From Myxococcota bacterium (lineage in GTDB: Bacteria; Myxococcota_A; SURF-8): a stretch of DNA of 64,000 nt. The notes under the pieces were generated by a model, which was not told the origin of the DNA, ran no database searches, and worked only from the letters and a program-made list of their open reading frames with translations. A program made the position numbers and the translations under genes. Shown piece after piece: positions 29,453 through 50,716 of this stretch; position 1 is the first letter of the stretch; each line of letters opens with the position of its first letter. Location: the NCBI GenBank assembly GCA_965140415.1, contig OZ223209.1, forward strand, positions 2,528,001 through 2,592,000, read 5' to 3'.

Positions 29453-29526
29453 TCGGGGATGGTCTAATGGCAGGACGACGGGTTCTGGCCCCGTTAATCA
29501 AGGTTCGAATCCTTGTCCCCGAACCA
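29453..29526 (+). tRNA. tRNA-Gln (anticodon CTG)
   Basis: Acceptor TCGGGGA/TCCCCGA, anticodon arm ACGGG-TTCTGGC-CCCGT, T arm CAAGG-TTCGAAT-CCTTG, encoded CCA. Confidence 0.96.
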
Positions 29527-29544
29527 TTTTTTTATGCTAACGCT

Positions 29545-29619
29545 GACCCCATCGTCTAGCGGTTAGGACGCCGGCCTCTCAAGCCGGTAGCGCGGGTTCA
29601 ATTCCCGCTGGGGTCGCCA
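29545..29619 (+). tRNA. tRNA-Glu (anticodon CTC)
   Basis: Acceptor GACCCCA/TGGGGTC, anticodon arm CCGGC-CTCTCAA-GCCGG, T arm GCGGG-TTCAATT-CCCGC, encoded CCA. Confidence 0.96.
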
Positions 29620-48373: not shown

Positions 48374-48937
48374 ATGGCCCAGAGTAAACCGTTTAAACGT
48401 AAGCGTTATCTGATTCAAAAAAACTTTCAGTTTTCGTATATCGGGAAAATCTTGGCCTTGGAACTGCTCGCGGTCGGGGCCACGGCTTTGTTGATGAGCT
48501 ATATGTTTCTCTACGTCTTTAACGATGCTGCGATGGTTTCAAGTGGTCCGTGGGGAAAGGGCATCTTCTGGTCCACCATTGTGCTGGGAATAGTTCTGAT
48601 GCTTATTTTAGGCTATCTTGGCGTCTTGGTTTCTCATCGCATCGCAGGTCCGATGTTTCGATTTGAAAAGACATTTCGCGAGGTGCAAGACGGCAATCTG
48701 AAAGTGCGTGTGTATCTGCGCGGCAAAGATGAAATGAAACCCTTGGCGCAAGCTTTCAACTCCATGCTTGATACGTTGGTGGAACGTATTCAACCAGCGT
48801 CCGTAGAGCCAAACCAAATAAATAGTCCCAAAAATCAGATACAGAGTATTTTAGTTGCTGTGGCCAATTCCGATCTGCCTGCAAACGAAAAAGACCAATA
48901 TCGTAAAACGCTGGAAGGACTTAAAGCCAAACTATAA
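48374..48937 (+). CDS. Two-TM HAMP-domain membrane protein
   Basis: KRKRYLI..FQ N-terminus; SHRIAGP...GNL...LRGKDE...FNSM. Confidence 0.85.
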   Translation: MAQSKPFKRKRYLIQKNFQFSYIGKILALELLAVGATALLMSYMFLYVFNDAAMVSSGPWGKGIFWSTIVLGIVLMLILGYLGVLVSHRIAGPMFRFEKTFREVQDGNLKVRVYLRGKDEMKPLAQAFNSMLDTLVERIQPASVEPNQINSPKNQIQSILVAVANSDLPANEKDQYRKTLEGLKAKL

Positions 48938-49088
48938 CGGAAGGGGTTTGCGTTAAGCCGCTTATTGTTGGAGCGGCAACAGCTGTAGAGGGGCGAACTG
49001 TTTTCTCCAGAGGTCTGGTTGGTACTTGTGGTTTGTGGTCGGGTGCCTTTATCGTTTGATACGTGTGAACCAATCCAACAAAGAATAG

Positions 49089-49197
49089 AAAAAGCGGACG
49101 GCGAAGTCCTGACCTCGAAAGCAACCACTCTGCCACTTGGGGGGGACGGTGGGACTCTAAAGCGGTCGTCTCAAGGTCAGGACTTCGCCGCCCGCTA
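49089..49197 (-). ncRNA. Candidate stand-alone small RNA (long hairpin, C7 apical loop, U tail)
   Basis: 23-bp terminal stem extended by inner stems that gain G-U pairs only on the minus strand; followed by a T-run; promoter directly upstream. Confidence 0.65.
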
Positions 49198-49204
49198 ACT
49201 ATAT

Positions 49205-49233
49205 ATGATTACCAAACTTTGCCCCGATGTCAA
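49205..49233 (-). promoter_or_regulatory. Sigma70-type promoter for the candidate sRNA
   Basis: Perfect TTGACA (49233-49228), 17-bp spacer, AATCAT (49210-49205); the hairpin starts about 8 nt downstream. Confidence 0.65.
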
Positions 49234-49311
49234 GAGGAGACGACAGAAATTTACACCACAGTTTAATGTGAAACTTGGCAGACAGTAAATACTACTTGTA
49301 ATATCAAATGA

Positions 49312-49857
49312 TTACCAGACCCACTCGGTTTTCCCCAATTCAGATAAAAGATTTTTTGGAACCCAGCCTTGCACGGATTGTCCAGTTTTTAATGCTTCTC
49401 GTAGCTTTGTACTGGATAAGTCAGGTAGTACCAGCCGATCCTGCGATTCCAGAAAATGATTTTGCCGACCGATCCAAATAATGGGAAACTGTGTTTGCAG
49501 ATCGTCGAAACGCTTCCAACGATCCTTCTCTCCACGAATGTCTGAGCCGAGAATCAGAGAGAAGTGAATGTCCGGGTGGCGTGATGCAAGGGATTCCATG
49601 GTGTCGATAGTACGGTTTTCATTCGGTAGTGTTCGTTCGATATCATTGACTTGGCAGGAGTCGCCGAAAGGCTCTGCCAGCAGTTCACACAGTCGATGGC
49701 GAAGTCCATAAGGGGCAAGTGCCTTTCCGAATGCGTGTTGGTTACAAGGGACCAGCCACACCTGATCGATGTTGCAGCTTTGCAGTGCATAAAAAATGGT
49801 TAGTTGGTGGCAGATGTGAGGGGGATTGAAACTGCCACCATAAACTGCAACTTGCAT
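49312..49857 (-). CDS. nadD: Nicotinate-nucleotide adenylyltransferase
   Basis: YGGSFNPPHICH, RTIDT, ILGSD and SSTKLR. Confidence 0.9.
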   Translation of the reverse strand: MQVAVYGGSFNPPHICHQLTIFYALQSCNIDQVWLVPCNQHAFGKALAPYGLRHRLCELLAEPFGDSCQVNDIERTLPNENRTIDTMESLASRHPDIHFSLILGSDIRGEKDRWKRFDDLQTQFPIIWIGRQNHFLESQDRLVLPDLSSTKLREALKTGQSVQGWVPKNLLSELGKTEWVW

Positions 49858-49861
49858 GGTT

Positions 49862-50716
49862 TTAGAATCCCCAGTCTCGAGCATAATTGAAATCCCTGTC
49901 GATCGTGCGCGGACTGACCTTGGCAATAACAGGCAGGCGACGCTTGAATTGAGAGGAACGAATCATCTCCTGAATGCGCTGGATGAAGGTCGTATCGAAG
50001 CCAGCTTCAATCAATTCATCAACCGAGCGACGACGGTCGATCATGGCAATTAACAGCCGATCGACTTCGGCATAGGTGAATCCCAGTTGTCCTTCATCTG
50101 TCTGTCCGGACCATAAATCGGCGCTAGGTGGTTTGTTGAGGATAGCTTCCGGAACACCTAAATGTGCGGCCAACTGGAAAATCTGCATTTTGTACAGATC
50201 GCCGATCGGATTGATGGCGCTGGCCAAATCACCGTGCAGGGTGCCGTAACCTAATAGCAGTTCCGTTTTATTACTGGTGCCCAATACCAGTGCGCGTTCG
50301 ATTACCGAGAAATCGTACAGGATCGTCATACGTTCCCGGGCCATTTTGTTACCGATGCGGTTTCTCATCACCGCTTCATCATTGCTGGTAGGAATTTCCG
50401 GCTTATCAAAGTAAGTTTCAACTTGTGGAGAAACGGACACGACGTGATGCCTGGGTAGTTGCAGATCTTCAACACAGGCCAGCGCATCTTTCAGGCTGTT
50501 CGGGTTGGAAACACCAGATGGCATGATCACCGGAATGACATTTTCCTTGCCTAAAGCCCGGGCTGCCAAATAGCAAACTACGGCGGAATCAATGCCTCCG
50601 GAAAGTCCCAGCACCACGCGATTCACGCCCACCTTGGTAACTTCATCCATCAGAAAGGCCGACAATATCCGTTCAACTAGAACCGGTGAAATTTCAAGTT
50701 CTTTTGCTGCATTCAT
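49862..50716 (-). CDS. nadE: NAD+ synthetase (synthetase domain only)
   Basis: LGLSGGIDSA, GNKMARERM, GTSNKTE and PPSADL. Confidence 0.96.
   Translation of the reverse strand: MNAAKELEISPVLVERILSAFLMDEVTKVGVNRVVLGLSGGIDSAVVCYLAARALGKENVIPVIMPSGVSNPNSLKDALACVEDLQLPRHHVVSVSPQVETYFDKPEIPTSNDEAVMRNRIGNKMARERMTILYDFSVIERALVLGTSNKTELLLGYGTLHGDLASAINPIGDLYKMQIFQLAAHLGVPEAILNKPPSADLWSGQTDEGQLGFTYAEVDRLLIAMIDRRRSVDELIEAGFDTTFIQRIQEMIRSSQFKRRLPVIAKVSPRTIDRDFNYARDWGF

Follow-up and report, generated by a model that had tools for sequence, protein, structure and literature searches.

In a branch of uncultured Myxococcota we have identified a conserved, structured small RNA gene, and we are confident that it is real. 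The gene lies on the minus strand of the window, i.e. the whole stretch of 64,000 nucleotides that was analyzed, and is distinguished by its structure, its conservation, the covariation of its stems, its promoter and terminator signals and a single-copy, lineage-restricted distribution. Our preferred reading in full is that the gene encodes a base-pairing sRNA of ~105 nt, which acts through a C-rich loop independently of chaperones and is specific to one uncultured Myxococcota class. We assign this complete statement a probability of about 0.55; from the features described below we infer that the gene is transcribed, that the RNA base-pairs and which target it may have.

A long hairpin between promoter and terminator signals

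The predicted promoter is composed of a TTGACA -35 box (49228..49233, minus strand) and an AATCAT -10 box (49205..49210, minus strand), which are separated by a 17-nt spacer, and the hairpin starts ~8 nt further downstream. Both boxes were recognized in a promoter scan, in which the TTGACA-17-AATCAT arrangement represents a 10/12 match, and the -35 box is in addition conserved in homologous copies. Over the region the scan returned 2 sites as compared to 2.1 expected from shuffles, which is chance level. As the scan count is not above that of the shuffles, the promoter call rests on conservation rather than on the scan. From the geometry of promoter and terminator a minus-strand transcript of ~104-112 nt is predicted (49089..49200), which would start 5-9 nt past the -10 box (49200-49196) and end within the T-run.

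Most of this transcript would be taken up by a long hairpin of 104 nt (49093..49196, minus strand), for which RNA folding predicts 43 base pairs including 6 G-U pairs. The hairpin doubles as the stem of an intrinsic terminator and is followed at its 3' side by a T5 run, the terminator tail (49089..49093, minus strand). The sequence-only reading had called this succession of promoter, hairpin and T-run on the minus strand, and a check of the sequence confirmed it. The minimum free energy of the minus-strand RNA is -72.3 kcal/mol, while dinucleotide shuffles reach -34.6 +/- 3.7 kcal/mol (z -10.1) and none of 200 shuffles was as good. Folding of the same hairpin from the plus strand yields -58.8 kcal/mol. 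It had been argued that the stem acquires G-U pairs only on the minus strand and that selection must consequently act on an RNA. This argument from strand asymmetry is right, because 6 of the 43 pairs in the minus-strand fold are of the G-U type.

Within the hairpin, the P2 stem is formed by the 5' arm CGACCGCUUU (49159..49168, minus strand) and the 3' arm AGAGUGGUUG (49122..49131, minus strand), as defined by the RNA fold and the core alignment. Written as DNA, this inner stem reads CGACCGCTTT/AGAGTGGTTG, with positions 49168-49159 paired with 49131-49122. An internal loop separates P2 from the closing stem CCAC/GTGG (CCAC/GUGG in the RNA; 49152-49149 with 49136-49133), which carries a 12-nt apical loop, CGUCCCCCCCAA (DNA CGTCCCCCCCAA; 49137..49148, minus strand). 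Seven consecutive cytosines in this loop (49139-49145) represent the proposed seed. Inner stems and C7 loop are thus present as the sequence-only reading had claimed, and the RNA fold confirms them. The tip of the hairpin represents a near-invariant 35-nt apical module, CUUUAGAGUCCCACCGUCCCCCCCAAGUGGCAGAG (49128..49162, minus strand), which is evident from the alignment of 14 copies.

Upstream of the sRNA lies a gene for a cytidylyltransferase-like protein of the nadD type (49312..49926, minus strand), and no terminator is found between this gene and the sRNA. The downstream neighbor is convergent (48374..48937, plus strand), codes for a HAMP-domain membrane protein of 187 aa and is syntenic in two further genomes of the family. 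The nadD-type neighbor recurs in only one other genome, i.e. in two genomes in all; a leuS-like gene is located upstream of the sRNA in two genomes, and unrelated genes are found at this position elsewhere. Only members of the own family share the convergent HAMP protein, a pseudopilin-like protein and radical-SAM genes in the neighborhood of the sRNA. Because promoters and terminators are conserved while the neighbors differ, the sRNA represents an independent gene rather than an appendage of one of them.

The locus matches no known RNA family

A search with the 4227 models of Rfam 15, which include sX13, SRP RNA and 6S RNA, gave no match at the locus when gathering thresholds were applied. 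At these thresholds the only matches in the entire window were two tRNAs (29453-29616), which are encoded by adjacent genes on the plus strand and score 63.7 and 68.4 bits. When E-values up to 10 were admitted, the locus yielded only chance-level rows for lncRNA, CRISPR and snoRNA models, the best being vertebrate lncRNA models (E 0.6-2.9). Comparison with Rfam had been proposed as a check on the novelty of the RNA, and no known family was found at either stringency. The sequence-only reading had further set the RNA apart from SRP RNA by the lack of its motif and from 6S RNA by its short length. In agreement, both RNAs are found elsewhere in the genome, SRP RNA (RF00169) with 71.1 bits and 6S RNA (RF00013) with 73.8 bits, and neither model matches at the sRNA locus. 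The 6C model (RF01066), for which membership requires 47 bits, produced no row for 48900-49400 at E<=10 and none genome-wide at E<=1.

The element is present in single copy in the genome, a single contig of 5,975,757 bases. A BLAST search against the own genome returned, below E 0.4 and beyond the locus itself, only the two arms of the element matching each other. Being single copy, the element is no dispersed repeat; many dispersed copies lacking promoters, which had been named as evidence for such a repeat, do not exist in this genome. In viral contigs the core pattern of the sRNA had 0 matches.

We also searched the full text of the literature, a body that leaves most subscription journals and the supplements outside. 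Within this scope the core sequence of the sRNA was not found, nor was any text combining Myxococcota, small RNA and C-rich, and a broader search was equally unproductive. The family is therefore undescribed, given that there is neither an Rfam family nor a literature match, while RNAs of the C-rich-loop kind as such are already known.

The sRNA is restricted to one class of uncultured Myxococcota

When 40 related genomes were searched by BLAST with a 161-nt query, significant matches (E 4e-17 to 2e-6) came from all 9 that belong to the same order. In several relatives the alignment covers the middle of the hairpin only, with 91-98% identity, and the outer arms are mostly unaligned. An exact-pattern search retrieved 10 loci from assemblies of uncultured Myxococcota, which represent the identical set of genomes; the organism is known solely as metagenome-assembled genomes. 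The order searched comprises 10 genomes (G000-G009) and equals the whole class in the genome set used.

A covariance model, R1, was built after aligning 14 copies. Its matches cover all 10 class genomes, with scores of 77-82 bits, the four copies of genome G007 scoring 64, 62, 56 and 34 bits. Apart from G007, every class genome carries one copy (9/10). The G007 paralogues L018, L039, L040 and L056 each have a promoter of their own, and their loops contain C8, C8, C7 and C6, respectively. Outside the class, R1 was applied to a sample of 141 other Myxococcota genomes, of which 4 gave weak and mostly partial matches of 20-24 bits (E 0.006-0.06 per genome). These are attributed to chance, since they are expected when 141 genomes are searched. 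The C-rich segment also gave weak BLAST matches to high-GC genomes outside the class; these fell within coding sequence and were likewise put down to chance.

In a large metagenome collection three further contigs were found, one of which has the same sequence as a genome copy over the stretch compared. The sequencing runs listed for the locus are two DNA runs from one study, with no RNA run among them, and their contigs show that the sRNA gene is present. In one DNA run the assembly breaks at the sRNA hairpin. One DNA run contains a second contig (24 kb, lower depth), which carries the invariant core (corresponding to window positions 49131-49162) extended by two cytosines, and the stems flanking it are unrelated. 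This variant probably stems from another member of the class in the sample.

Gene signals are conserved and the stems covary

Upstream of all 15 copies that were fetched a -35 box of the TTGACA type is present, 13 being exact and 2 having one mismatch, and -10-like hexamers occur at matching spacing in the relatives. Behind the last hairpin, 14 of these copies have a T-run, the exception being G007 copy L039. The sense strand folds more stably than the antisense strand in 12/15 copies, and the three exceptions are G007 copies.

In the core alignment (14 sequences), 88.6% of the cells are paired, and shifting the partners by 1-3 columns lowers this value to no more than 49%. In four P2 pairs both partners vary within the class, one of these pairs occurring as C-G, U-A and U-G, and the covariation score of the core is reached by 0 of 500 shuffles. 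Among the five long forms of the RNA the consensus contains 42 pairs, 16 of which show compensatory double changes. The covariation analysis that the sequence-only reading had called for thus reveals covarying stems both in the core and in the long forms. Its central proposal, an undescribed promoter-driven structured RNA of ~105 nt under selection as RNA, is strongly supported by the single copy, the lack of an Rfam match, the presence in 10/10 genomes, the covariation and the conserved promoter and terminator.

Three architectures can be distinguished. A hairpin of 41-44 pairs, which itself serves as the terminator, is found in the own genome, in three relatives and on one metagenome contig. 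Eight copies have a hairpin of 16-20 pairs, which is followed by a separate small terminator hairpin, and an intermediate form is found in G007. In total, 10/15 fetched copies are shorter forms, 16-20 pairs being present in the eight copies outside G007 and in the fourth G007 paralogue. All three architectures carry one and the same tip.

The apical module and its cytosine run

The alignment of 14 copies, which covers four families of the class, contains 29 invariant columns, and all but one of them fall within the 35-nt module. Helix 2, the 4-bp closing stem, shows no variation among orthologues. The loop of all 15 fetched copies contains a run of 6 to 8 cytosines and that of one further contig C9, so that the length of the run varies from 6 to 9 on otherwise constant flanks. 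The fourth G007 paralogue, in which closing stem and internal loop differ and the loop is shorter, has kept a C6 run flanked by U. Since the diverged paralogue as well as the length variants retain it, the constant feature of the family is a cytosine run in a hairpin loop. The invariance of the whole 35-nt module among orthologues, including closing stem and internal loop, exceeds the needs of a seed and also fits recognition by a protein.

The comM leader is a candidate target

Targets were predicted in the own genome by combining 7-nt seeds with duplex energies, and the reversed sequence served as control. Predicted duplex sites were not enriched in 5' regions, to which 4.2-4.8% of the sites mapped as compared to 4.07% of strand-space (reversed control, 3.2-3.4%). 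The gene starts underlying this count and the GGGG count below were obtained with a crude ORF caller, whose start choice favors SD-like motifs. Sites matching the 14-nt complement with at most two mismatches were searched in the 10 genomes; they were not clearly over-represented relative to the reversed-pattern control in most of them, and most of the sites examined are located within open frames. In one class genome (G008:C1) the 14-mer GTGGGGACGATGGG occurs at at least 6 places (e.g. 553026, 789128, 997483), a pattern suggestive of a dispersed repeat with no relation to the sRNA.

The sequence-only reading had proposed G-rich ribosome-binding sites as possible pairing partners of the C7 loop, and its examples are short runs of G4-G5. 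One of them, the G5 run ahead of the ATG on the minus strand (7855-7853), is present as stated. GGGG is ~2.5-fold enriched at -15 to -6 of the crude starts (281 in two bins vs ~55 per 5-nt bin), which corresponds to roughly 280 of 4225 crudely called genes and has to be read in light of the preference of the start choice for SD-like motifs. Genes for a 313-aa and an 819-aa protein, which have G-runs at their ribosome-binding sites, were rejected as targets, as these runs are lost in the orthologues. Pairing of the loop with G-rich ribosome-binding sites is thus plausible by analogy with known RNAs, but it receives no backing from the distribution of predicted sites in 5' regions, nor from the two candidates whose G-runs are not conserved. 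G5 runs are strongly under-represented in the window, 38 being found as compared to 102 +/- 11 expected from dinucleotide shuffles.

The best match in a 5' region is GGGGGGACGGUGGGAC at G000:C1:3770951-3770966 of the own genome, a perfect 16-nt complement of GUCCCACCGUCCCCCC in the sRNA. The site is preceded by a sigma-54-like motif, TTGGCA-N5-TTCGCA, and is followed 29 nt further downstream by the ATG of comM/yifB, a gene with ChlI and Mg_chelatase domains. Among all matches it ranks third behind the antisense strand of the sRNA itself and one other site, and the top non-self matches apart from comM are located outside called 5' regions. The comM leader of G007, a genome from a different family, contains a tandem GGGGACGGCGGGGACGGCGGGA, which pairs with the G007 sRNA copies with one C-A mismatch per repeat. 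In comparison with 500 shuffled cores, a z of -4.3 was obtained for the own comM leader (1/500 as good) and a z of -3.8 for the leader of G007 (0/500 as good). The other seven of the 9 comM leaders compared exhibited no complementarity (z -0.9 to +1.0); the leader of G005 was left out of this comparison due to its uncertain start. Two of 9 leaders are too few for a core target, and on these sequences chance complementarity in two distant genomes appears unlikely. We regard the comM 5' leader as a candidate target in the own genome and in G007, and it is the only candidate.

Two further observations concern comM itself. At most of the 10 class comM loci a sigma-54-type motif, TTGGCAC-N5-TTGC(T), is readable 30-90 nt upstream of the start codon; comM would therefore be sigma-54 dependent in the class. 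In the own genome comM/yifB is split, the N-terminal half being encoded at 3770995-3771681 and the C-terminal half at 3825126-3825995 (G000:C1, outside the window). The 53.4 kb between the halves have a GC content of 45.4% vs 52.4% and contain a type I-E CRISPR-Cas set (Cas3, Cse1, Cse2, Cas7-like, Cas5, Cas6e-like, Cas1). Also present are a reverse transcriptase, a D12 methyltransferase and a TIR-domain protein as well as an IS3-type transposase, a tyrosine integrase and a large serine recombinase of 694 aa. From its gene content the insert looks like a defence island that has integrated into comM.

Discussion

In the mechanism that we propose, a sigma-70-type promoter would drive synthesis of an RNA of ~105 nt as a transcription unit of its own. 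The long hairpin would expose the near-invariant apical module at its tip and, in combination with the U-run, would also terminate the transcript. The functional element would be the exposed 12-nt loop with its cytosine run, which by analogy would most likely pair in trans, in a G-C-rich manner, with guanine-rich stretches of mRNA leaders or ribosome-binding sites. Pairing could alter translation or stability without the help of Hfq, as is the case for 6C and sX13. A profile of Hfq matched none of the 10 class genomes (G000-G009), which may be incomplete, the own genome being one closed-looking contig, and a ProQ profile had no match in the own genome. The lack of an Hfq match fits chaperone-free G-C pairing of the kind known from 6C and sX13.

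Pairing of an exposed C-rich loop with G-rich mRNA leaders is a design used by GsrN of Caulobacter, and an exposed C-rich or C/U-rich loop serves the same role in RsaE/RoxS of Firmicutes and RepG of Helicobacter. For these RNAs the transcripts have been measured and the stress or metabolic regulons are defined. The sRNA described here, which is known from sequence alone, follows the same design principle and is not homologous to them. In hairpin shape and in its conserved apical or internal loops the sRNA also resembles SRP RNA and 6S RNA, both of which are abundant. C-rich-loop sRNAs are stand-alone genes with a conserved cytosine run in the loop, and the signals found here agree with this type, the -35 box being present in 15/15 copies, the T-run in 14/15 and the C-run in all 15.

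The closest parallels are 6C and sX13. For Mycobacterium 6C (B11), an RNA of Actinobacteria, direct and chaperone-independent binding of several mRNAs by the C-rich loops, which form multiple G-C pairs with them, has been reported (PMC6486639). Like 6C, the present RNA is small and stand-alone and has a hairpin loop with at least 6 cytosines; it occurs in a class with no Hfq match. Unlike 6C, which has two hairpins with a C-rich loop each (PMC6486639), it consists of a single long hairpin whose loop is the only C-rich one. It also belongs to a different phylum and matches 6C neither in sequence nor by model. The three C-rich loops of sX13 from Xanthomonas are reported to act on G-rich motifs near translation starts, Hfq is dispensable, and G-rich motifs are present at the ribosome-binding sites of ~5% of the Xanthomonas genes (PMC3771888). 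The two RNAs have in common the C-rich loop and a host genome with G-rich motifs at ribosome-binding sites, seen here as a GGGG peak based on crude starts. In contrast, sX13 carries three 4C loops on three stems; it is unrelated in sequence and lineage, and the present locus has no Rfam match.

Because the invariance goes beyond the seed, the main rival of the base-pairing reading is an RNA that binds or sequesters a protein. The apical module with its AGAGUC internal loop, the CCAC/GUGG stem and the C-rich loop would provide a docking site for an RNA-binding protein specific to the lineage; the RNA itself would then be a scaffold, sponge or cofactor instead of pairing with mRNAs. This would account for 29 invariant columns that cluster, all but one, in 35 nt across four families, for a closing stem that is invariant among orthologues, and for the fact that target scans and candidate orthologues revealed no shared mRNA target. 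However, the gene is not linked to any candidate protein, and its neighbors vary from genome to genome. Moreover, the diverged paralogue has changed closing stem and internal loop and kept the C-run, which speaks for the letters of the loop rather than a fixed shape, and the complementarity of the comM leaders in two distant genomes would be hard to explain. We consider a protein-docking role unlikely. A yet bolder scheme, which we deem improbable, would make the 35-nt tip the recognition module of a class-wide, Hfq-free riboregulation that operates through a dedicated protein or loop-loop kissing and controls the leader of a sigma-54-driven comM, encoding a DNA-uptake/recombination helicase. 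The stem of 41-44 pairs would in this scheme be a precursor processed by RNase III and resembling a bacterial pre-miRNA.

That the stem as such matters, either as an RNase III substrate that releases the apical module or as a decoy for enzymes acting on double strands, would be in keeping with the 41-44 pairs of the five long forms. The same tip is, however, kept by nine short copies with 16-20 pairs in the conserved hairpin. As these forms lack the long stem, the latter is no feature of the family and RNase III processing not its function; a role as double-stranded substrate is quite improbable, and cleavage of the long stem may be an extra of the own family. We give even less credence to a purely cis-acting role, in which an outsized bidirectional terminator or insulator would separate the convergent nadD-type and HAMP genes and the RNA would have no free role. 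Read-through from the upstream gene, which ends at 49312 and has no other terminator before the hairpin, would admittedly be stopped by hairpin and T-run. Against such a role stand the non-conserved neighbors, the -35/-10 promoter of its own at each copy, the separate small terminator that follows the conserved hairpin in the short forms and the invariant 35-nt tip, which a terminator would not need. Finally, a long inverted repeat with four copies in one genome, G007, might bring to mind a mobile palindromic repeat (MITE, REP-like) or a phage or plasmid remnant. This origin is excluded: the own genome and 9/10 class genomes in total have a single copy, no viral contig contains the core pattern, and the G007 copies each have a promoter of their own and differ in their stems.

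Taken together, an uncatalogued and well-supported RNA family is added to a deep, uncultured branch of the Myxococcota, for which no regulatory RNA has been described. With the seed alignment and a working covariance model in hand, the sRNA can be annotated in new assemblies. The base-pairing reading adds one more independent case of a C-rich loop in a lineage that apparently lacks Hfq, and use of this design in such a lineage supports the idea that strong G-C pairing can replace RNA chaperones. The sRNA and the comM leader make up one concrete, testable pair. In the own genome comM is also the landing site of the 53-kb defence island, and if the link holds true, a small RNA would take part in controlling a gene for a recombination helicase.
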